A stretch of 64,000 bases of DNA from positions 960,001 to 1,024,000 of the forward strand of contig CAXXKT010000001.1 of NCBI GenBank assembly GCA_963662405.2, read 5' to 3'. The notes beneath the pieces are model-generated. The model ran no database searches. It had not been told where the DNA came from and was given only the letters and a program-made list of their open reading frames with translations. Origin of the DNA: Syntrophales bacterium. GTDB lineage: Bacteria > Desulfobacterota > Syntrophia > Syntrophales > UBA2210. Positions 18,910 through 51,987 of the stretch are shown in pieces. Positions within the stretch are counted from its first letter, which is position 1. Each line of letters starts with the position of its first letter. A program made the position numbers and the translations under genes.

Positions 18910-20244
18910 TTACAGTTGTCTCCTCAAGACCTGCGCGGCTATATGGATGGGATCCCATACCCCGCTGAAGGGGGGACTGTATGCAAGGTCCAGATAGCCG
19001 ATATCGTCCAGATCCATCCCCGACCAGAGACACGCCGAGAGGGTATTGATACGGCTGACCGCCCCGCTCTGTCCCACGGCCTGGGCACCCAACAGTTTTC
19101 CCGATGCCTTGTCTGCAATCACCTTGATCCCCAGCCGCCGGCCCGTACCCATGGATGCCGCTCTGGCGGATCCCCAGATGATGGTACTTGCGAAAGCATA
19201 TCCGCTCTGTTCCGCCTCACGTTCATCAAGACCGGTTGCGGCCACTTCCAGACCAAAGACCTTGAAGGCCTGGGCGCCGATAACACCCGGGAAAGCCATC
19301 GGATACCCCCCGATATTCCGGCCGGCCACCCGGCCCTGCTTGTTCGCGATATCCCCCAGCGGTATGGAGACCCACCGTTTGCTGATCCGATGGTACGATT
19401 CACAACAGTCACCGGCGGCAAAGATCCCTTCCTTTTCGGTCTGTTGCGCATGATCAACCGTGATGGCACCCGATTCTCCGACGGGTATGCCGGCCGCCCG
19501 CGCCAGCGTCGTCTCGGGCTTCACGCCGAGGGCGAAGATGATGAGATCCGTTTCTATTTTCTCCTGGTCGGTCACCAGACACAGTCGTGCCCGAGAGCCC
19601 TTCTCAACGGCGACGGGTGACTGATGGGACAGAAAGATCACCCCGTTATCCGTCAATTCATCCAGCACCACCTGGGAAAAGACCGGGTCCCATTTCTTGA
19701 CCGGCAGCTCGCCCCGGTAGACGATTCGTGTCTCCAGGCCGATGGTCTTCAGTGCCTCGGCCATCTCCATGGCGATAAAACCGGCCCCGACGATCGCCGC
19801 TCTGCGGCAGCGGTTTTCCTCGATATATTTCTTGATATTGATACCATCCCGCAGATTCTTCAGGACGAAGGCCCCATCGCTTTCCGTTCCCGGCATATCG
19901 GGAAGAGTCGCCTCGGCACCGGTCGCCACGACGAGAAAATCGTACGGCAATCGTTCTCCCCCTTCCAGCAGGACCTCCCCGCTCTCGGTTCCGATCTCCT
20001 CAACGTGGGTCCTGAGCCGCACCTCGACCCCGGATTCCTCAAATTTTTCAGGGGTCCTCGCGATAAGCCTTTTCGGGTCCTTGATTACATCACCGATGTA
20101 ATAGGGCATGGGTCAGGCGGCATACGAGATAAACTCACCCCGCTCCACCACCGTTACCTGCAATGAGGGGTCCCGTCTCTTTGCCTCTGCTGCCGCGGAA
20201 GGTCCTCCGGCACCTCCCCCAACGATCACGAGTCTCTTGGTCAT
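18910..20244 (-). CDS. Selenocysteine-containing CoA-disulfide reductase / NADH oxidase family flavoprotein (Sec44)
   Basis: ATG 20244 with a GGAGG RBS gives MTKRLVIVGGGAGG..ISYAA-TGA-PMPYY. The TGA (20115-20113) occupies the catalytic Cys of SYxxCGLPY. NADH motif IVGAGFIA and DLAYSPPFS are present, and a SECIS-like hairpin follows. Confidence 0.88.
20084..20102 (-). promoter_or_regulatory. SECIS-like hairpin
   Basis: ATTACATC-GGT-GATGTAAT (8-bp stem, GGT loop) begins 10 nt after the in-frame TGA. Confidence 0.75.
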
Positions 20245-21083
20245 ATGGTCCCTCCCTGTCGTCTCTTTACCAGCGTAATCACAATACCGACGAGTATCAT
20301 ACCGAGGCAGAGGAGCTGCCCCATACTCAGGTTGCCCAAGACACAGCCGAGTTGCGGGTCCGGTTCCCTGAAGAATTCAATACAAAACCGAACCAGACCG
20401 TAGCCGATCAGATACAGCGCGAGCATCCTTCCTCTGAAAAGCTCCTTTTTCCGGAGACCCCACAAAAGGGCAAACAGGACAACCCCTTCGAAAAAGGCCT
20501 CATACAACTGAGACGGGTGGCGCAGGGCCCTGAGAGGGTCCAGCGGGAAATACATCCCCCACCAGACATCCGTCATGCGACCGTAGAGTTCTCCGTTCAG
20601 GAAATTCCCGATCCGTCCGAAGGTGTACCCTAGGGGAATCGCCGGGCAGAAGAGATCGGAAAACCGCCAGAAATCGATCCTCCGCCTCACGAAAAACAAG
20701 ATGGAAACGAGAACGATACCGATCAGTCCGCCGTGGTACGACAGACCGCTGATACCCGTATAACGGAAGCCGTCTGAAAGATCAAACGGGCACACCACCG
20801 CGAGGGGGTGTGCCGCGTAGTATGCCGGGTTATAGAAGAGGACATATCCCAATCGTCCCCCCACCAGGAGGGCGGCGATCGCCCAGACAAAATAATCCTG
20901 GACCGTTTCCCTCCCGTACTCGAATCGCTCGTCCCGTATCCGATGGATCACGAGGAGATAGATCACGGCAAATGCAACAAGGTACATAAGTCCGTAGTAG
21001 CGCATCTGAAAGGATCCGATCTCCAGAAACGCCGGATTGATGTGCTCCGGGATATGTTGCCAGATATCGATCAGTCGGGCCAT
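20241..21083 (-). CDS. lgt: Prolipoprotein diacylglyceryl transferase
   Basis: RYYGLMY, GGRLGYVLFY, GLSYHGG, GRIGNFLNGELYGR, RHPSQLYEA and IEFFREPD motifs. Confidence 0.96.
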   Translation of the reverse strand: MARLIDIWQHIPEHINPAFLEIGSFQMRYYGLMYLVAFAVIYLLVIHRIRDERFEYGRETVQDYFVWAIAALLVGGRLGYVLFYNPAYYAAHPLAVVCPFDLSDGFRYTGISGLSYHGGLIGIVLVSILFFVRRRIDFWRFSDLFCPAIPLGYTFGRIGNFLNGELYGRMTDVWWGMYFPLDPLRALRHPSQLYEAFFEGVVLFALLWGLRKKELFRGRMLALYLIGYGLVRFCIEFFREPDPQLGCVLGNLSMGQLLCLGMILVGIVITLVKRRQGGTI

Positions 21084-21135: not shown

Positions 21136-21158
21136 AACCCCGGCGACCCGCCGGGGTC
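21136..21158 (-). promoter_or_regulatory. SECIS-like hairpin of the FmdB-type gene
   Basis: GACCCCGGCG-GGT-CGCCGGGGTT begins 10 nt after the first TGA (21171-21169). There is no U-tract on either strand. Confidence 0.65.
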
Positions 21159-21162
21159 CGGA

Positions 21163-21366
21163 TCAGCCTCAGGTGGACGAACAGGACGGACCCGACAGGG
21201 AACAGGCCTGGCAGGACCCGTGAGATCCGGCGGGAAGTGAGACCACTTTTTCTATCTTTTTCTTCCCGCAGTCAGGACAGGCAACCTCGTGGAACTCGTC
21301 CTGGACCGGTCGGATCATCTCAAATTCCCTGCCACAGAGGGTACATCGATATTCATATATCGGCAT
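21163..21366 (-). CDS. FmdB-family zinc-ribbon protein, probably a selenoprotein ending ...CSST-U-G
   Basis: MPIYEYRCTLC..CPDCG zinc ribbon and a Cys-rich tail. It ends TGA GGC TGA followed by a SECIS-like hairpin. Without readthrough the end is 21169. Confidence 0.8.
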
Positions 21367-21434
21367 TTCATCTTCTCCTTATACGACACGGCGGTCTCCT
21401 CACCAACCGCCGTCAGGATCCCACCCACATGTTT

Positions 21435-22400
21435 TTAATATGACTGCCCTTTCAGATCATCCACATGCAGTGATGCGCTGTGAGCGGCCGTTGCCCCGTC
21501 GCCGCAGGCGGTTATCACCTGGCGCAGAGACTTCCTGATGCAATCACCACAGGCGAAGATACCGGGGACTGACGTCTTCATATCATGATCGGCAATAATA
21601 TAGCCATCCTCATCCACGTTGACAACCCCCCTGGCACAATTCGTATTGGGGACAAGACCGACAAAGATAAAGACCCCGTCCACCGGGATCTCTTCATATC
21701 GTTCGGGATCCTTGACGTTCCGTACCCTGACCCCCGTCACACCGTCTTCGCCGAGGATCTCTTCCACGACGGATTCCCAGGCGAAGGTGATCTTGTCGTT
21801 GGCAAAGGCCCGCTTCTGCAGGATAGCTGTCGCTCTCAGACGATCCCGACGGTGAATGACGGTGACGGTCGAGGCGAATTTGGTGAGGTAGATGGCCTCC
21901 TGAACGGCGGTATCCCCGCCGCCCACCACCGCAACCGCACGATTTCGGTAAAAGGGGGCATCGCAGGTGGCACAGTATGATATGCCGCGACCCACCATCT
22001 CCTCTTCCCGCGGTACCCCCAGGCGGCTCCAGGCGGCTCCCGTCGCGATAATGACGGCAAGGGTCGGGTAGGTACCTCCATCGGTCAGAATCTCCCATCC
22101 CTCGACATCCCCCAGCTGTTTGCGGCGTATCGCGCTCACCTGCTCGGGTTTGACATCCAGACCGAACGCAACCGCCTGCTTTTTGAAGGTGTCGTTCAAC
22201 TCGAACCCGCCGACGGCGGGGATACCGGGATAGTTCTCGATCAGGTCCGTCATGGTAATCTGGCTGGCCTGCGCGTTCCCCTCCACAAGGAGCGTTTTCA
22301 TATCGGCCCTGGATGCGTAGAGACCGGCGGTCAACCCGCCGGGCCCACCTCCAATAATCACTATATCATACGCTTCTTGCGGTATCTGTCTCTCGGCCAC
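21435..22400 (-). CDS. trxB: Thioredoxin reductase
   Basis: IIGGGPGGLTA, IENYPG, active site SYCATCD, VVGGGDTAVQEA, HRRD and FACGD..RQVITA. Confidence 0.95.
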   Translation of the reverse strand: MAERQIPQEAYDIVIIGGGPGGLTAGLYASRADMKTLLVEGNAQASQITMTDLIENYPGIPAVGGFELNDTFKKQAVAFGLDVKPEQVSAIRRKQLGDVEGWEILTDGGTYPTLAVIIATGAAWSRLGVPREEEMVGRGISYCATCDAPFYRNRAVAVVGGGDTAVQEAIYLTKFASTVTVIHRRDRLRATAILQKRAFANDKITFAWESVVEEILGEDGVTGVRVRNVKDPERYEEIPVDGVFIFVGLVPNTNCARGVVNVDEDGYIIADHDMKTSVPGIFACGDCIRKSLRQVITACGDGATAAHSASLHVDDLKGQSY

Positions 22401-25693: not shown

Positions 25694-28171
25694 TTATATA
25701 CCCAAGAGTCCGGGTTCATCGCCCTGCCCTTCATCGTCTTCCGATTGGGCGCGCTCCACCCGCGCTAATCCTACCAGCTTTTCACCTTCGGCCAGATCGA
25801 TGAGCTTGACTCCCTGGGTACTGCGGTGAAGTAGAGATACCTCTCCGACCCCCAGACGGATAATGTTTCCCGCATCACTGATCAGCATGATATCCTCATC
25901 GCCGGTCACCTGTTTGATCCCCGTCACACAGCCGATCTTGGACGTTGTTTTGAGGTTAATAATTCCCTTTCCCCCCCGTGACTGAAGTCGATATTCGGCA
26001 ATCTCCGTTTTTTTGCCGAACCCCTTTTCAGAAACGGTCAAGATTAAATTGCTGTCGGTGGTGACTTCCATACCGACGACTTCGTCATCCGGTGCAATCC
26101 GTATTCCGGTCACTCCCCGCGCGGTTCTCCCAATGGACCGGACATCTTGTTCATGAAACCGTATGGCGTTTCCCTTCCGGGCGCCGAGAAAGATATCCTG
26201 GTCGCCGTTCGTCTGCTTGACATCGATCAGCTCATCCCCGTCGTCGAGGGTCAGCGCTATGATACCGCCGGATCGGGGATTGGAATAGGCTATGAGATCG
26301 GTCTTCTTAATGATCCCTCTCCTGGTCGCCATGACGATAAATTTACCCGGGACAAACTCTCTTACCGGGAGAACAGCCGTAATTTTTTCATCCTGTGATA
26401 TGCCGATCAGGTTGACAATCGCCTTCCCTTTTGCTGCCCTTCCGGCCTGGGGAATCTGGTATATCTTCAGCCAGTATACCCGGCCCTTATTGGTAAAAAA
26501 GAGTATATGGTTGTGTGTTGAGGCGATAAACATTCGCTCGATAAAATCGTCTTCCTTCGTTCCCATTCCCACCTTGCCGCGACCGCCACGGTGCTGACTC
26601 CGGTAGAGACTGACCGGATTGCGCTTGATGTAGTTCTGATGGGATATGGTCACCACCATATCCTCTTCAACAATCATATCCTCGATCCCGATATCCGTGC
26701 TGCTGAGAACGATCTCCGTTCTTCTCTCATCACCATACCGCTTCTGGATCTCCTCCAGTTCCTCAACGATAATGTTCAAAACCTTCCGGGAATCTGCAAG
26801 TATCCCCTCCAGCCGCTTGACAAGAGCAGATATCTCGATGTGTTCTTCGCGTATCTTGTCGCGCTCCAGGCCGGTCAGGCGCTGCAGTCTCATCTCCAGG
26901 ATCGCCTTGGTCTGTTCCTCGCTCAGGCCGAACCGGGCCATCAGTTCTTCGGCAGCCGTCTTGGCGTTTTCGGATGCCTTGATAATCGCGATGACCTCGT
27001 CGATATTATCCAGGGCGATAATAAACCCCTCCAGTATGTGCAGCTTCTCCCTGGCCCGCGCGAGCTCATACATCGTCCGTCTGATAATAATCTCTTTCCT
27101 GAATTCGATAAACTTGACGAGGATCTCTTTCAGGTTCATGACCCGGGGCTGCCCCCGGTCAATGGCCAGCATGATGATGCCGAAGGTCGATTCCATCTGG
27201 GTGTGCTTGTAGAGCTGGTTGAGGATTACCCCCGACATTTCGTCCCGCTTCAGATCGATAACAATTCGCATCCCCTCACGATCCGATTCATCTCTCAGAT
27301 CTGAAATACCGCTGATCTTCTTTTCCTTGACCAGCTCCGATATCTTCTCGATGAGATTCGCTTTGTTCACCTGATAGGGGAGTTCGGTAATAACGATACT
27401 TTCCCTGTCATTACGGGAATTACGTTCAATGATAGCACGCGCCCTGATCCTGATGATACCGCGTCCCGTCCGGTAGGCGGAGACGATTCCGTCCCGGCCG
27501 TTGATAAAGCCGGCCGTCGGGAAATCGGGCCCCTTTATGAAGGTCATCAGGTCATCGACGGAAAGTTCCGGGTTGTGGATGAGTTCAATGATCCCATCGA
27601 CCAATTCGGTCAGGTTATGGGGGGGAATATTGGTCGTTAAACCAACCGCGATACCCGATGAACCATTCAGAAGAAGGGTCGGGATTCGTGCAGGAAGAAC
27701 CACTGGCTCCTGGAGAGAACCATCGTAGTTCGGAATAAAATCAACGGTATCCTTATCAAGATCGGCAAGCAGTTCATCGGCCAGTCGTGCCATCCTGATC
27801 TCGGTATATCGCATCGCGGCCGGCGGATCTCCGTCAACGGATCCGAAATTTCCCTGACCATCGATAAGCGGATACCGCATAGAGAAATCCTGAGCCATCC
27901 TGACGAGGGTATCATAGGCGGCCGAGTCTCCATGGGGATGATATTTACCGATGATGTCACCCACGATTCTCGCGGACTTCTTGTACGGCCTGTTCCACCG
28001 GTTTCCAAGATCGGACATCGCATACAATGCCCTCCGGTGAACCGGTTTGAGTCCGTCTCTGATATCAGGAATAGCACGTCCCACAATGACGCTCATCGCG
28101 TACTCCATGTAGGACTTTTGCATTTCTTTTTCTATCGTTACCGGTATGTTCCTCTGGAACAACTGATCCAT
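25694..28171 (-). CDS. gyrA: DNA gyrase subunit A
   Basis: [25 protein letters not shown], GyrA-box QHRGGRG and C-terminal beta-pinwheel repeats. Confidence 0.98.
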
Positions 28172-28297
28172 AACCTTGAAAAACCTTTCTTCCAGCTATA
28201 CTGATTTAGTAGTGATATCTCTATCCCACCCATCCCAACAGGCAGAGATATAAAGAGGGTGGATGAAAATCAGACCATCGATTCTCTTCTCCCCCGA

Positions 28298-31827
<3,530 letters not shown>

Positions 31828-31972
31828 ATCGTCACCTATTGTTTTGTAAATAATTTCTTAATAATAAAATATAGTAGTAATAGTAGGTATTGTGGATATG
31901 TGGAAAGACAGTATATAAATACCTTTTATTATTACTATACACTCCTCTTATTTATACTTGATAAGCCTGTTG
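31828..31972. other. oriC: Chromosomal replication origin (oriC) unwinding region
   Basis: AT-rich dnaA-dnaN gap. DnaA-trios TAG TAG TAA TAG TAG (31872-31886) sit next to tandem DnaA boxes TGTGGATAT (31891-31899) and TGTGGAAAG (31899-31907). Confidence 0.85.
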
Positions 31973-33304
31973 TTAGAGGGTGTGAAGGGACAACTCTATT
32001 TCCTCCACAGTTTTTCTGAGATGATGATCTCGTTCTATCATCTTTTTAATCTTGTTGTTCGAATAAATCACCGTAGAGTGATCCCTTCCTCCGATCTTTT
32101 CACCGATATCCGGAAATGAGTGATTCGTCAACTTTCTTGCGAGGTACATGGCGACCTGTCGTGAGAGTACGAGATTTTTATTTTTTTTTGGCGATTTAAT
32201 ATCTCCCACTCGAGTGTTAAAGTTTTTTCCAACGGCTTTTAAGATTTCATCGACAGTAATCTCCTGTTTTGCCGAGTGTTTAAGGATATTTTTAATAACA
32301 TCCCGTACTATATCAATGGTGATATCTTTTCCGGTTAGGGAGGAGTAAGCGGCTATCCTCGTCAGGATCCCTTCCAACTCTCTGATGTTGGAATCGGCGA
32401 CGGAGGCAATATAATGTGTCATCTCTGTCGAGACATCAATACCATTTTCCTGCGCTTTTTTTTCTACAATCGCGATCCGTGTCTCTATGTCAGGGGGTTG
32501 GATGTCAGCGATCAAACCCCACTCAAATCGTGATCTCAATCTTCCTTCAAGATTTTGAATTTCCTTCGGAAACTTGTCGCTGGTAACAACGATCTGCTTT
32601 CCCGAATCATGGAGGGTGTTAAAGGTATGGAAAAATTCCTCTTGAGTTCGTTCCTTCCCGGCAATGAATTGGATGTCATCTATCAACAGTGAATCTATCT
32701 TCCGGTATTTTTCCCTGAAGTTCGACATCTTGTCATATCTGATGGAGTAGATAAGTTCATTCATGAACTCTTCTGCCGAGACATATAAGATATTTTTTTT
32801 GGGGTAGAGAGAGACGGTATGAACACCAATAGCGTTGATTAGATGTGTTTTCCCCAGACCGACTCCTCCGTAAACAAACAAAGGATTGTAGTTACGAGCG
32901 GGTTGCTCTGCAACCGAAAGAGCGGCGGCATGGGCGAACTGATTGGACGAGCCGACGACAAACCGTTCGAAGGTATATTTCAAATTGAGTGACGAGTGCA
33001 GACGGACGGGAGGACTACTCACCGTCTCATGAGTTCCTCTCTCGATTGATATTTCTTTCTTCTCTGGTTTCCTGATAACGAACTGGACATCGACATTGAG
33101 GCCCGAGATATCCGCAAGAGAATTACTGATCAGCTCAATGTAATTATCTACCAGCCAATCCTTAAAAAACTTATTCGGGACCCCGAGGAGCACATTATTA
33201 TCCTCCAGCGAAACTATTCTGATCGGTTTAATCCACGTATCAAAGTTTTGCTGACTAACTTTTTCTTTAATTATTTTGATACCTTCATTCCAAAATGATT
33301 CCAA
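31973..33304 (-). CDS. dnaA: Chromosomal replication initiator DnaA
   Basis: YTFERFVVG, YNPLFVYGGVGLGKTHL, LLIDDIQF, RLRSRFEWGL and GGRDHSTV; TTG start. Confidence 0.98.
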   Translation of the reverse strand: MESFWNEGIKIIKEKVSQQNFDTWIKPIRIVSLEDNNVLLGVPNKFFKDWLVDNYIELISNSLADISGLNVDVQFVIRKPEKKEISIERGTHETVSSPPVRLHSSLNLKYTFERFVVGSSNQFAHAAALSVAEQPARNYNPLFVYGGVGLGKTHLINAIGVHTVSLYPKKNILYVSAEEFMNELIYSIRYDKMSNFREKYRKIDSLLIDDIQFIAGKERTQEEFFHTFNTLHDSGKQIVVTSDKFPKEIQNLEGRLRSRFEWGLIADIQPPDIETRIAIVEKKAQENGIDVSTEMTHYIASVADSNIRELEGILTRIAAYSSLTGKDITIDIVRDVIKNILKHSAKQEITVDEILKAVGKNFNTRVGDIKSPKKNKNLVLSRQVAMYLARKLTNHSFPDIGEKIGGRDHSTVIYSNNKIKKMIERDHHLRKTVEEIELSLHTL

Positions 33305-33378
33305 TTGCCCAACCCTTTATAAACAATGCTATCAACAGCTGTTAATAAAAATATGAATTGCGTTCAACTGCTTCCGGT

Positions 33379-34254
33379 TCAATATCGATCATTTCCGCTC
33401 ATAATGGCATCTAATACCCGATCGAGATCATCGGCAGAGAGAAACCGTATCTCAATGACACCTCCCTTTCGGAGCGGCTTTATGTTTGTTTTTGCCATCA
33501 ATCGCTCCGAAAGTTTTTTTTCAAGATCTACGATGTGTATCTCCTTCTTAGGAGTTGCCTGCTTCTTTTGGGTGCGGCGGGACGCAAAGCTCTGTGCCAT
33601 CTTCTCAGCTTCCCTGACGCTGAGTTTTTTAGCGATTATTTCACGGAGAGCCGACCGTTGTTCCTCAGATGAAACGATGGATAACAGAGCCCGCGCATGT
33701 CCGGCGGAGATTTCTTTTTTTATGAGAGCGTTCTTTGCCTCCTCGGGCAGATGCAGGAGACGCAAGACATTTGCTATTGTTGAGCGTTCCTTGCCGACCC
33801 GCAATGATATCTCTTCCTGTGAGAGGTGAAACCGGTTTATCAGTGTTTGATATGCTTCTGATTCCTCAATTGGGTTCAACTCTTCACGTTGGATATTTTC
33901 TATGAGAGACAATTCTGCAATATCAAGATCTTCTGTTCCTTGACGAATGATGATCGGAACATCCTTTAGCCCGGCGGCTTGAGCGGCGCGCCACCTGCGT
34001 TCTCCAGCGATAATTTCATAACCCGGGCGGTCGTTGGGCTTTCTCACGAGTATCGGCTGAAGAATCCCGTTTTCTTGAATCGAATCAGAGAGTTTCCTTT
34101 GTTCTTTTTTGTCAAAGACCCTCCGGGGCTGAAAGCGATTCGGTGACAGTTCCTCGATCCCACACATGGCAAAGTGTGATTTATTGACGGAATCGTCCAT
34201 AAGATCCGGAAATATAGCGCCGAGCCCCTTGCCCAAGGCGTTTTTTTTAGACAT
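33379..34254 (-). CDS. parB: Chromosome partitioning protein ParB
   Basis: LGKGLGA, NRFQPR, GILQPILV, IIAGERRWRA, IENIQREELNPIE and an HTH. Confidence 0.96.
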   Translation of the reverse strand: MSKKNALGKGLGAIFPDLMDDSVNKSHFAMCGIEELSPNRFQPRRVFDKKEQRKLSDSIQENGILQPILVRKPNDRPGYEIIAGERRWRAAQAAGLKDVPIIIRQGTEDLDIAELSLIENIQREELNPIEESEAYQTLINRFHLSQEEISLRVGKERSTIANVLRLLHLPEEAKNALIKKEISAGHARALLSIVSSEEQRSALREIIAKKLSVREAEKMAQSFASRRTQKKQATPKKEIHIVDLEKKLSERLMAKTNIKPLRKGGVIEIRFLSADDLDRVLDAIMSGNDRY

Positions 34255-35024
34255 TATATCCTTCCGTTCGTCATGATTTCCTGTGCCAGCGACATATACG
34301 AAACAGCCCCACTTGATTTAATATCGTACAGTATGATGGGCAACCCATGGCTGGGGCTCTCTGAAAGCCTCACATTCCTTGGTATAATGGTCTTAAAGAC
34401 ACTCCTCCCAAAAAAACTTCTCGCTTCATCGGCCACTTGGTGCGAAAGGCGGTTTCTCTGATCAAACATGGTCAGAAGGATACCAGCCAGCGAAAGAGAC
34501 GGGTTGAGCCGAGCCTGTACCAGCTTGACGCTGTGGAGTAACTGCCCCAGCCCTTCCAGTGCAAAGAATTCGCATTGCAACGGAATAATAAATGCGTCTG
34601 ATGCCACAAGGGAGTTAACAGTTAAAAATCCGAGAGACGGAGGACAGTCGATTATAATAAACTCATAAGCACTGTCAATTGTTTTCACAAAGTTTCTCAA
34701 CCTTTTTTCCCTGTCATTGAGAGATACGAACTCTATTTCAACACCGATCAGATCCCGATTTGAAGGGATGACGTCCAGCGTCTGAATATCTGTATGGCAC
34801 ACAAGATCCTGAAAGGGAGCATCCTGCACCAGACCATAGTAGAGATTTTTTTTCTGTACCACCGCTGGGTCGATTCCCACACCGCTGGTTGCGTTTCCTT
34901 GTGCGTCACAATCAATCAGCAGCGTTTTCCGCTCTGCGGCAGCCAGAGACGCTGACAAATTGATAGCGGTCGTCGTCTTACCGACGCCACCCTTCTGGTT
35001 GGCTATACATATGACTTTTTGCAT
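34254..35024 (-). CDS. parA: Chromosome partitioning ATPase ParA/Soj
   Basis: NQKGGVGKTTT, DAQGNAT, IIDCPPSLG and IPRNVRLSESPSHG. Confidence 0.96.
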   Translation of the reverse strand: MQKVICIANQKGGVGKTTTAINLSASLAAAERKTLLIDCDAQGNATSGVGIDPAVVQKKNLYYGLVQDAPFQDLVCHTDIQTLDVIPSNRDLIGVEIEFVSLNDREKRLRNFVKTIDSAYEFIIIDCPPSLGFLTVNSLVASDAFIIPLQCEFFALEGLGQLLHSVKLVQARLNPSLSLAGILLTMFDQRNRLSHQVADEARSFFGRSVFKTIIPRNVRLSESPSHGLPIILYDIKSSGAVSYMSLAQEIMTNGRI

Positions 35025-35155
35025 GTTTTCAGGATTGTTCTTTCCGCACGCGCACCTTCAGAATACTGGTCGAGATGCTAGCACACAAGAGAAGATTTGA
35101 GAAGCGGTAATTTGGGGTAACGAGCAACAGAAATGGTGGGGTCTGAGCTCCTGTT

Positions 35156-35821
35156 TTATGGTAAACGCCTTCGAAAACAGAATAGCTTTCTGAATTCACC
35201 GGTCACGGGGAGGAGCAGCTCCCGAGACCCGGTCAACTCAAGCCCCATTTGTTTGATGGTATCCTCCGCATGGGCCAGTTCTTCGTCCGCACATTGTCCC
35301 TTCATGGCAATCAACATCCCATCCTCAGACAGAAAGGGTTCCCCGATGGTAAGCAGTTGGGAAATATTCCATGTCGCCCGCGATATAACCACATCAAACA
35401 CGCCGCGGTATCGGGTTTCCCGTGCGGCTGATTCTGCCCTGGTGTTGACTGCCGTGATATCACGGATACCAAGAGTCCGAATGACGTGTTTGAGAAAAGA
35501 GGTCTTTTTCCGGGATGATTCGATCAGTGTCACGCGCAGTCGTCCCACCCGAATCTTCAGTGGAATACCGGGCAGGCCGGCCCCCGTTCCGATATCCAAG
35601 AGGGTGGCATCACCTTTTGTGATCAGCGGAATCGGCGTCAGAGAATCGATCAAGTGTTTTGTGATGTCATGGGGGGACTTGATCGATACAAGGGACATCT
35701 TCGCATTCCAGAGAATCAGTTCCCGAGCATATGTCATCAGGAGATCGATCTGAGGTTTCGTGAGGAGAATGCCCATCTCCTGGCTGGTCTTGGCAAGGGT
35801 TTGTTCTGTTTTTTTAATCAT
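35156..35821 (-). CDS. rsmG: 16S rRNA m7G527 methyltransferase (GidB)
   Basis: HLIDSL, LDIGTGAGLPGIPL, RAE, FDVVISRA and AMKG; adjacent to parA. Confidence 0.93.
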   Translation of the reverse strand: MIKKTEQTLAKTSQEMGILLTKPQIDLLMTYARELILWNAKMSLVSIKSPHDITKHLIDSLTPIPLITKGDATLLDIGTGAGLPGIPLKIRVGRLRVTLIESSRKKTSFLKHVIRTLGIRDITAVNTRAESAARETRYRGVFDVVISRATWNISQLLTIGEPFLSEDGMLIAMKGQCADEELAHAEDTIKQMGLELTGSRELLLPVTGEFRKLFCFRRRLP

Positions 35822-36027
35822 ATGGCCAAATAGCTTTATAAAAGAGATACGCCCAATCGCCCCCCGCACATCTCGAAGGTCTGGATATATTGTTACAACC
35901 GTCTCTTTTATATCCCGTGGAAGCTCCGCACAACTTGTGGTATACAGCACCCGATACCGATTCTAGGCAAACAATGCGGATTATGCAATACGAAAAGAGA
36001 CGCGGGTGGCATGTGGAACGGGCAAAG

Positions 36028-50480: not shown

Positions 50481-51899
50481 TCACGCCCCGGCGGCTATCC
50501 GTGCCATACCGTCCGCGATAAAAACGAATTCCTCATCCGTGACGGTACGAAGATCGAGGAGGACCTTGTCATCATAGACCCTCGTAATAATGGGAATTTC
50601 TGATTGTCGCAATTTCTTTTCCAGTGCGCTCGTTGAGAGCGAGCGGGACTCGACGGCGATAACGATAGTGGGAATCTCCTGCGTGGGGAGAGATCCTCCC
50701 CCGGCCAGCGATGTGTCTGCCCGCGTGGTGAATGTCATGTCCGAAAGGGAACGGTCCTTCAGGAGTGCCACCAATGACCGTGCCCTCTTTTCGACCTCGG
50801 CAAGCGGTTCCGTCAGGGCACGCAGGACCGGTATGTCGGAGATCGCAGCGCCGAGATCAAGATAATGGATCATCGTTGCCTCGAGGGCCGCCAGGGTCAA
50901 TTTATCGATCCGGAGTGCCCGATTGAGGGGGTTCTTCTTGATCTGTTCGAGGATAACCTTTCTCCCCACGATGATTCCTGCCTGCGGTCCCCCGAGAAGC
51001 TTATCACCGCTGAAGGTGACGACATCAACGCCACTTCTGATCACCTCTTGGACCGTCGGTTCTCCTGCGAAACCATAGGAACCGAGATTCACGAAGCAGC
51101 CGCTTCCCAGGTCGTTCATCACCGGCACAGTCTTTTGCTTGCCGAGTGCCACCAGCTCGTCCAGGCCAATTTCTTCGATGAAGCCGACCACTTTAAAGTT
51201 ACTCGTGTGGACCTTCAGGATCAAGCCGGTATTGGCGTCGATGGCCTTTTCATAATCGGCGTAGTGGGTGCGATTCGTGGTTCCCACCTCCCTCAGAATG
51301 GCACCGCTCTTTTCCATCACCTCGGGGATACGGAATTCACCCCCAATCTCGATCAGTTCGCCCCGTGAAACGATTGCCTCTTTCCCCTCAGATAGGGTGT
51401 TGAGGGCAAGGAGGACGGCGGCGGCATTATTATTGACGATGAGGGCATCTTCCGCCCCCGATACGGCGCAGATGATTTCTCTGACGTGGTCGTACCGTAT
51501 CCCCCGTTTCCCCTGATCGAGGTCGAACTCGAGATTGGAATACCCTTCGCTGATGGCGGAGAGTCGATTGATGGCTTCCCTGCAGAGCGGCGCTCTTCCG
51601 AGATTCGTGTGCAGGATGATACCCGTCGCGTTGACCACGCGGCGGAGGCTTGGGATATAGAGGGATATCAACTCATTGCGTACCCTCTGGGCCACCTCAT
51701 CGGGCGAAACGGGAGGAAACTGGACTTTTTCCCCCTTCGCGGTCAGTATCGTCCTTCGCATCTCTTCGACCACCTGGCGACACTTCCTCACCACAATCTC
51801 ACGGGACATCCCCTCAAAGGAACCCTCTCGTTCGAGAATGATAAGCAGTTCATCAATCTTCGGGAGATTTTTCAGTAGATCGTTGGCCGTATCACTCAT
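50481..51899 (-). CDS. selA: L-seryl-tRNA(Sec) selenium transferase (selenocysteine synthase)
   Basis: VVNATGIILHTNLGRAPL, VNNNAAAV, VSRGELIEIGGEFR, EVGTTNRT, KVHTSNF and FSGDKLLGGPQAG. Confidence 0.97.
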   Translation of the reverse strand: MSDTANDLLKNLPKIDELLIILEREGSFEGMSREIVVRKCRQVVEEMRRTILTAKGEKVQFPPVSPDEVAQRVRNELISLYIPSLRRVVNATGIILHTNLGRAPLCREAINRLSAISEGYSNLEFDLDQGKRGIRYDHVREIICAVSGAEDALIVNNNAAAVLLALNTLSEGKEAIVSRGELIEIGGEFRIPEVMEKSGAILREVGTTNRTHYADYEKAIDANTGLILKVHTSNFKVVGFIEEIGLDELVALGKQKTVPVMNDLGSGCFVNLGSYGFAGEPTVQEVIRSGVDVVTFSGDKLLGGPQAGIIVGRKVILEQIKKNPLNRALRIDKLTLAALEATMIHYLDLGAAISDIPVLRALTEPLAEVEKRARSLVALLKDRSLSDMTFTTRADTSLAGGGSLPTQEIPTIVIAVESRSLSTSALEKKLRQSEIPIITRVYDDKVLLDLRTVTDEEFVFIADGMARIAAGA

Positions 51900-51987
51900 G
51901 CTGGTACGAACCCTCCCCGTATCGGAACCTGTCACCGATCAGCCACGCAAATAGAAAAAACCGTTCGAAATTGCACATGACAAACCC

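Follow-up and report, generated by a model that had tools for sequence, protein, structure and literature searches.

A probable C-terminal selenocysteine in an FmdB-family zinc-ribbon protein of a Syntrophales bacterium

Introduction

Where does the protein encoded by the FmdB-type zinc-ribbon gene of this locus end? The gene lies in a stretch of 64,000 nucleotides from a Syntrophales bacterium (the window, by which we mean the whole stretch of DNA analyzed here), and its reading frame runs into a TGA codon that is followed by one glycine codon and a second TGA. A previous reading made from the letters alone (the sequence-only reading) had proposed that the first TGA encodes selenocysteine (Sec), with a hairpin just behind it as the decoding signal. 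Bacterial SECIS elements lie just 3′ of the UGA and carry a G in the apical loop. The established mode of bacterial Sec decoding, by SelB together with such a hairpin, is set out in the sections of PMC12013277 drawn on here.

An FmdB selenoprotein is already in print, and what would be new is Sec at the C-terminal site. In the published form, predicted from two GOS reads (Zhang and Gladyshev, 2008; PMC2398784), residues 8 and/or 11 are Sec (Dataset S2); the relevant entries give it as UxxU in PMC13188914 and as U/CxxU in PMC9312934, and the deep-Sep supplement lists the same FmdB representative with Sec in the ribbon. The GOS protein and the one considered here share the TIGR02605/COG2331 domain, Sec in place of a Cys and a SECIS after the UGA, but the former has Sec in the first ribbon CxxC, whereas the latter has all four ribbon Cys and its predicted Sec next to last in the tail. 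Since Cys8 and Cys11 are specified by Cys codons, the protein falls outside the GOS UxxU/CxxU subfamily.

Results

The FmdB Gene and Its Predicted Protein

The gene is on the minus strand (21366-21163), which we add to the earlier account, and starts with ATG at 21366. Under translation table 11 it has 65 codons and ends ...CQACSLSGPSCSST (SGPSCSST), followed by TGA (21171-21169), GGC and TGA (21165-21163), so that the end C-S-S-T-TGA-GGC-TGA previously described for it is borne out. Its features are the following.

21163..21366, minus strand: complete reading frame including Sec read-through, 67 aa and a TGA stop (TIGR02605, PF09723)
21241..21366, minus strand: zinc-ribbon domain, residues 1-42, with Cys8, Cys11, Cys30 and Cys33 (HMM matches, invariant Cys, AlphaFold2)
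21166..21237, minus strand: Ser/Gly-rich tail, residues 44-67, with Cys52, Cys55, Cys62 and the predicted Sec66-Gly67 (sequence)
21169..21171, minus strand: in-frame TGA, predicted Sec66 (sequence and homolog comparison)
21163..21168, minus strand: Gly67 codon and predicted true stop, here TGA (sequence)
21136..21158, minus strand: SECIS-type hairpin with a 10-bp stem and a GGU loop, wholly in the 3′ untranslated region (folding, homolog comparison)
21375..21380, minus strand: Shine-Dalgarno-like AAGGAG, 8 nt 5′ of the ATG (sequence)

The protein exceeds the FmdB-family cut-offs of TIGR02605 (61.7 bits against 31.3) and PF09723 (55.6 against 34.4) and shows the architecture of the family, in which a Ser-rich low-complexity tail comes after two CxxC pairs. 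The four ribbon Cys are invariant in two alignments of Sec-form proteins (42/42 and 60/60). AlphaFold2 models the ribbon (residues 1-40) as three strands at a pLDDT of 82-91, and the tail at 51-58 without secondary structure.

The first TGA is no assembly error, as it is kept both in relatives (see below) and in contigs of related strains from another study. One such contig spans both TGAs, with none of its 4 differences, all of them listed, in these codons; a second likewise spans both, with none in these codons among the 11 of 12 differences listed. The expectation that gene callers would miss a Sec-Gly end also holds: database entries stop at the TGA, and of 10 truncated FmdB forms checked against the records, 8 are present there in that shortened state. 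Sequences matching truncated Sec forms exactly are deposited for Thermodesulfobacterium commune (AIH03923.1), T. geofontis (WP_013909295.1), T. sp. TA1 (WP_150071834.1) and Dehalogenimonas alkenigignens (WP_058439672.1). One protein that clusters with the truncated form of this locus carries the label Syntrophales.

Genes Around the Locus

Three neighbors on the same strand are of relevance.

21435..22400, minus strand: trxB, thioredoxin-disulfide reductase, 68 nt upstream of the FmdB gene (TIGR01292, 363.8 bits, cut-off 343.45)
20241..21083, minus strand: lgt, 79 nt downstream of the FmdB gene, its stop overlapping the next start (ATGA) (TIGR00544)
18910..20244, minus strand: CoA-disulfide reductase-like selenoprotein, 444 aa, Sec codon 20115-20113, hairpin 20102-20084 (TIGR03385)

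The last of these scores 383.9 bits against TIGR03385, under the cut-off of 578.8; its active-site codon is TGA in the context YAA-U-PMP, with an 8-bp GGU hairpin of its own. ORF calling under table 11 starts the reductase gene at 20109, past the Sec codon; the full gene runs from 20244 and overlaps the lgt stop.

The order trxB-fmdB-lgt-reductase is kept in most family-level loci, and the trxB neighborhood is limited to the source family and its near kin. Beyond the source family we scanned 104 of 142 ORFs flanking Sec-type loci, many of which are probably antisense frames and many without a Pfam match, and found among these 104 no shared gene context, no chaperone genes at E ≤ 1e-18 and only two thioredoxin-fold neighbors, both in other lineages. 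NikR, a CsoR-type repressor, SufBD and a FeMo-co domain occurred as one-offs. Elsewhere in the window (25694-35950), genes labeled from their translations as gyrA-gyrB-dnaN-dnaA together with parB-parA-like genes presumably mark the replication origin region.

The TGA and a Known Sec Codon in Close Relatives

A search of close relatives matched 59 of 61 genomes, and the 30 best loci were examined. In 29 of these (own locus included) the gene ends in [T/S/A/G]-TGA, one or two residues and a stop, with a hairpin; the TGA is thus kept in 28 of the 29 best-matching loci of relatives, and the second stop may be TGA, TAA or TAG. The exception is a genome of the same genus (G003), in which the FmdB tail ends SCSSCDCCQ and the hairpin is missing. 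The same genome, which has selB, carries TGT in place of the TGA of the reductase and has lost the stem there, at a position where 13 of the 14 reductase loci examined have TGA. A known Sec codon and the candidate have therefore been lost together.

G003 keeps a Sec-type FmdB paralog elsewhere (L247). Together with a locus of another genome (L035, G057) it forms a paralog group ending GGGFT-U-GT(G/S)GC, in which the partner Cys stands after the Sec and not before it.

Stop Codon and Reading Frame Across a Wider Homolog Set

The wider set was drawn from a phylum-wide search (matches in 295 of 301 genomes, 110 loci read), a Chloroflexota sample (30 loci), 80 loci of named genomes from a single-protein scan, mostly distant, and 16 loci from five chosen genomes. 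It comprises 275 distinct homologous ORFs matching the ribbon pattern, loci that did not match being left out, and the ORFs were classed blind to the stop, using solely the protein sequence that precedes it. Because the ORFs are related to one another and were retrieved with Sec forms as queries, the counts that follow are not independent.

Two classes stand apart. Among 157 short ORFs without a terminal Cys pair the first stop is TGA in 148; a further in-frame stop follows within three codons in 133 and at +1 in none, against 2 and 6 such stops in the other frames, and a hairpin of ≤ -7 kcal/mol is present in 121. Among 54 ORFs ending in a Cys pair the stops are TGA (23), TAA (20) and TAG (11), near stops number 5, 5 and 7 in the three frames, and no hairpin was found (0/54). 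The remaining 64 ORFs have TGA in 34 cases and a hairpin in 3. The Cys-ended homologs are the counterparts by which the sequence-only reading had proposed to check itself. Their Cys column matches exactly for CxxU forms (SCST-U-SH against SHCST-C-GH); the CxxxU protein of this locus is one residue off. The conserved in-frame UGA, together with Cys homologs at about the aligned position, is what would be expected of a selenoprotein.

In the 148 Sec-type genes the codon after the TGA has G at base 1 in 123 and G or C at base 2 in 142, with base 3 spread over 62, 37, 25 and 24; it thus appears constrained at bases 1-2 and free at base 3, as one expects of a translated Gly, Ala or Ser codon. For the second stop, TGA is used in 69, TAA in 44 and TAG in 35. 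That the second TGA is also a Sec codon was considered and rejected, because TAA or TAG stands there in 79 of the 148.

If the first TGA were instead the true stop, the second a back-up and the hairpin a terminator or mRNA-stabilizing stem, the first codon should vary as it does in the Cys-ended paralogs; instead, 148 of 157 ORFs have TGA there, and the next stop never falls at +1, being preceded by a constrained small residue. That gene callers end the protein at the first TGA is in line with a true stop, and so are properties of the hairpin taken by itself (below), but overall we consider this explanation very unlikely.

Two loci resist the simple classes. In L137 (G126) a TGA with a hairpin occupies the second Cys position in the first CxxC of the tail and the frame continues TSTNCGSCH, a possible further Sec position. 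L313 (G532), a Cys-ended Acidobacteriota homolog, has a TGA followed by a very stable hairpin with a CGUG loop at +20, a candidate for either SECIS or terminator; its close relative L311 ends in TAA.

A tree of 202 proteins gave 18 changes between Sec and Cys, only 3 of which are forced by strong branches; it was built on 76 columns that include those of the trait itself and leaves 112 of 199 forks open, and the number and direction of the changes should be interpreted with caution.

The Hairpin 3′ of the TGA

Folding agrees with the earlier description of a GC-rich 10-bp stem with a GGU loop ten nucleotides past the first TGA: the stem starts at +11, consists of 9 Watson-Crick pairs and one G-U, and has a free energy of -19.8 kcal/mol. 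Placed just 3′ of the UGA and with a G in its apical loop, it has the form of a bacterial SECIS element. The sequence-only reading had also compared it with the hairpin of the reductase, and here the offset (+11) and the GGU loop sequence agree; the loop position does not, being 2 nt off (+21 to +23 for FmdB, +19 to +21 for the reductase), as the reductase stem has only 8 bp as opposed to 10.

Single-sequence folding was rejected as proof of a SECIS, the FmdB hairpin being non-significant by this measure (z -1.28; 24 of 200 shuffles at least as stable). This unexceptional value, along with the fact that GC-rich hairpins are common after stops, is what speaks for a terminator or stabilizing stem. 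Nevertheless, the hairpin exceeds chance relative to the ordinary stops of its own genome, where a hairpin of the same geometry at ≤ -9 kcal/mol follows about 1% of ORF ends (18 of 2077 TGA, 14 of 1117 TAA and 11 of 860 TAG), although this background set is rough and may include antisense ORFs. The absence of a U-tract noted by the sequence-only reading was confirmed, and an intrinsic terminator, defined as a hairpin with a U-tract, was not called between the FmdB gene and lgt; only 12 of 129 Sec forms have five consecutive T after the hairpin, which again argues against a terminator.

Conservation of the hairpin, the other check proposed at the outset, is seen across the homologs. In 42 aligned sequences a six-pair stem is paired at 79.8%, with two-sided changes at 6/6 pairs, and 0 of 500 shuffles scored as high, in a control that ignores relatedness. 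Sliding the alignment by -3 columns gives nearly as good a score (71.3% paired, covariation 0.310 vs 0.328), a consequence of one hairpin type being aligned in a different register. The loop lies mostly at +17 to +23 across the Sec-type genes, and of 148 folds, 146 have a G at loop base 1 or 2 (a raw count with no control set). A covarying stem with a loop G is not what a true stop would lead one to expect.

Formate dehydrogenase-type SECIS elements are the closest comparison, sharing a stem-loop just 3′ of the UGA and a G at loop base 1 or 2, and several relatives have an FmdB loop region, CGGTCTG, identical to that of the two fdhA genes of the source genome. The FmdB element differs in sitting after the true stop. 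With Sec penultimate and the element past the stop, the FmdB SECIS would be free of coding constraint, hence the two-sided changes.

Presence of the Sec Machinery

The window contains selA, as previously stated.

50481..51935, minus strand: selA, Sec synthase (TIGR00474, 606.8 bits, cut-off 267.9)

The remaining components, selB, tRNA-Sec and selD, are on contig C3 of the source genome, which thereby has selA, selB, selC and selD. The selD gene (G000 C3:552135-553065, outside the window) is itself a Sec form (HGAG-U-ACK) but is split by a frameshift of one base in a run of G around codon 151, which is probably an assembly error. A rough scan of the source genome gave further likely Sec codons (G000 C1:169558, 172919, 400544 and 535318; C3:501757), which we take from their motifs to belong to two formate dehydrogenase alpha subunits (UH), two peroxiredoxin-like proteins and one heavy-metal-domain-like protein with GCWG-U.

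Within the order and the phylum the machinery provides only a weak test, as nearly all genomes have selB (58 of 61 in the order; over cut-off in 76 of 80 and 60 of 73 across the phylum). Of five Sec-type genomes without detected selB, four have selA and the fifth only a TGA-containing selD, and in two genomes that are at least 98% complete but devoid of selA and selB, none of the 5 TIGR02605 matches has a tail of the Sec type. We therefore turn to two other phyla, in each of which the 30 top-ranking genomes were represented by their best locus (60 loci in total), with the caveat that the center genome of each sample was in the query alignment and that selA baselines are high. In the Chloroflexota all 18 Sec-type loci are in selA genomes (baseline 90 of 121, 74%) and three selA-less genomes gave Cys ends; in the Acidobacteriota it is 21 of 21 (baseline 51 of 61, 84%, including the unpublished G546), and four selA-less genomes gave non-Sec ends. 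A true stop would not be expected to track selA in this manner, nor to vanish together with a known Sec codon as in G003.

In principle, a near-cognate tRNA or an altered genetic code could have the UGA translated as a different amino acid such as Trp or Cys, and Cys does align at that column in the paralogs. However, TGA is the commonest ORF end in the source genome (2077 of 4054), tRNA-Sec is present there, and in its position and loop G the hairpin is similar to the ones that follow the Sec codons of the two formate dehydrogenase genes; we give this explanation almost no credence.

Taken together, we read the first TGA as a Sec codon, with a probability of about 0.9, predicting a 67-residue protein that ends Cys62-x3-Sec66-Gly67. 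The inference made by the sequence-only reading is supported at the level of sequence by the kept TGA, the free second stop, the covarying hairpin and the Cys counterparts. The particular end C-S-S-T-U-G is correct for this locus; as a description of the family it does not stand, the conserved unit being one tail Cys at a variable distance before [T/S/G]-U-[G/A/S].

Cysteines of the Tail

Ser makes up 28% and Gly 21% of the tails of the 148 Sec forms. All 60 aligned Sec forms share an invariant tail Cys, at a distance from the Sec of mostly 3-10 residues and up to over 10. It is the only tail Cys in 68 of the 148 Sec forms, 44 have three Cys plus Sec (the source protein included) and 2 have none, whereas 52 of the 54 Cys-ended forms have at least four, in CxxC-x4-CxxC tails. 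A lone Cys beside the Sec fits a two-center Cys/Sec unit rather than a four-ligand site.

This distribution bears on what an inserted Sec might do. One proposal is a second metal site, in which Cys and Sec form a linear site for a soft metal such as Cu(I) or Hg(II), or join the other tail Cys in binding Zn or an Fe-S cluster, for sensing or hand-over. The CxxC-x4-CxxC tails of the Cys-ended paralogs are a metal-site pattern, 44 of the 148 Sec forms keep three Cys plus Sec, NikR, the CsoR-type repressor, SufBD and the FeMo-co domain occur next to single loci, and C-terminal CC/CU motifs are described for organometal systems in the available part of bioRxiv 2022.07.06.499078. Against these stand the Sec forms with one tail Cys, too few for a tetrahedral site though not for two-coordinate binding, and the one-off nature of the metal-related neighbors among the 104 ORFs, so that we regard a metal site as possible but rather doubtful.

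Alternatively, Sec insertion could be mainly regulatory, read-through reporting the selenium supply and altering the C-terminus (stability) or the expression of downstream lgt and reductase. Read-through adds two residues only, and the FmdB gene lies upstream of another selenoprotein gene, with Sec lost at both in G003. The invariant tail Cys points to chemistry instead, and outside the source family the genes downstream of FmdB homologs differ in strand and kind; a chiefly regulatory role is thus improbable.

Discussion

The closest characterized protein is Ruc (Rv0991c), a redox-regulated holdase that binds one zinc through C8, C11, C29 and C32 and, when oxidation releases the zinc, acts as a holdase needing its disordered tail (Becker et al., 2020; PMC7448276, in the parts drawn on here). 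Ruc is annotated as FmdB family in PMC13407613, and its family is described as common in Deltaproteobacteria, Chloroflexi, Acidobacteria and Nitrospirae (PMC7448276, PMC13407613; relevant sections). By architecture, on which the likeness is based, both proteins have a CxxC-x17/18-CxxC ribbon (C8/C11/C29/C32 vs C8/C11/C30/C33) followed by a disordered tail. They differ in that Ruc has four Cys only, with no Sec mentioned in the available text, whereas the tail here has about 24 residues with three Cys and the predicted Sec; and where Ruc genes in some lineages lie near DnaK/ClpB/GroEL-type genes, the locus has trxB-lgt-reductase.

We suggest the following scenario. SelB would bind the hairpin and deliver Sec-tRNA at the first UGA, upon which the ribosome would add Gly and terminate at the second UGA. 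The four N-terminal Cys would hold one zinc, as in Ruc, and the exposed selenolate would be the first group to react with oxidants; the oxidized Sec could then close a selenenylsulfide with the tail Cys, by which the zinc-thiolate switch would be protected or reset, and re-reduction would proceed via the thioredoxin system, the reductase gene of which is directly upstream in the source lineage. The flexible tail as a Cys/Sec redox arm of this kind is favored on account of the zinc release of Ruc on oxidation and the Cys/Sec pair on a flexible tail. Support for this function is architectural in kind, and we put the redox arm forward as a proposal with as much to be said for doubting as for accepting it.

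Terminal Sec occurs in other proteins as well. In animals, thioredoxin reductase (GCUG), SelK and SelS have Sec at or next to the C-terminus. Among bacterial selenoproteins, SaoC and KCU-star have Sec in such a position (PMC13188914; bioRxiv 2022.07.06.499078; entries drawn on here), and they share with the FmdB form a terminal Sec on a flexible end that is hard for annotation pipelines; PGAP, according to the section on SaoC in the preprint, cannot predict C-terminal Sec. They differ in having CU dipeptides, whereas the FmdB form has Cys and Sec 3 to 10 or more residues apart and a zinc ribbon as the carrier.

Searches for a previous record were in keeping with a new Sec position. Outside Haft and Tolstoy (2025), the families of which are tabulated in PMC13188914 (as seen in its available part), and the BSepDB family list, we found no description of a C-terminal Sec in the FmdB family in the literature: the main text of PMC5029168 gave no match, and the available parts of PMC11227280, PMC13745706 and PMC13326102 yielded no C-terminal Sec form. 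No selenoprotein model was among the 25 matches listed of 34 NCBIfam r20 families for the 60 aligned Sec-form members, and a sequence search of the PDB returned generic zinc fingers and RNA polymerase subunit P only.

The 2026 inventory of prokaryotic selenoproteins (PMC13188914, in the part available) counts 119 families, has FmdB only with ribbon Sec and treats another Sec position as a separate subfamily. By that standard the C-terminal Sec form would add a family, with 148 distinct genes, as opposed to two reads for the GOS form, and 20 further Acidobacteriota loci; the Sec-type records are named as Thermodesulfobacteriota, Myxococcota, Chloroflexota, Acidobacteriota, Nitrospirota, Bacteroidota and KSB1. 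The contribution of this locus to our view of the family consists in the joint loss of Sec with the reductase, a test of the reading frame and a connection to Ruc. Many database proteins would be missing their reactive residue, the selenoproteome counts of anaerobes would be too low by one or more, and search methods would be blind at C-termini.

Tentatively, and as speculation, the penultimate Sec could serve a Ruc-type zinc chaperone both in sensing oxidants and in resetting its switch. Such a protein would be a chaperone of anaerobes gated by selenium and would form a widespread, uncatalogued subfamily in at least seven phyla; its SECIS elements, lying outside the coding sequence, would amount to a natural library of SelB-binding hairpins without protein constraint. 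For the FmdB family, which has one characterized member, the predicted Sec would provide a chemical handle, and in cultured hosts that are not pathogens.
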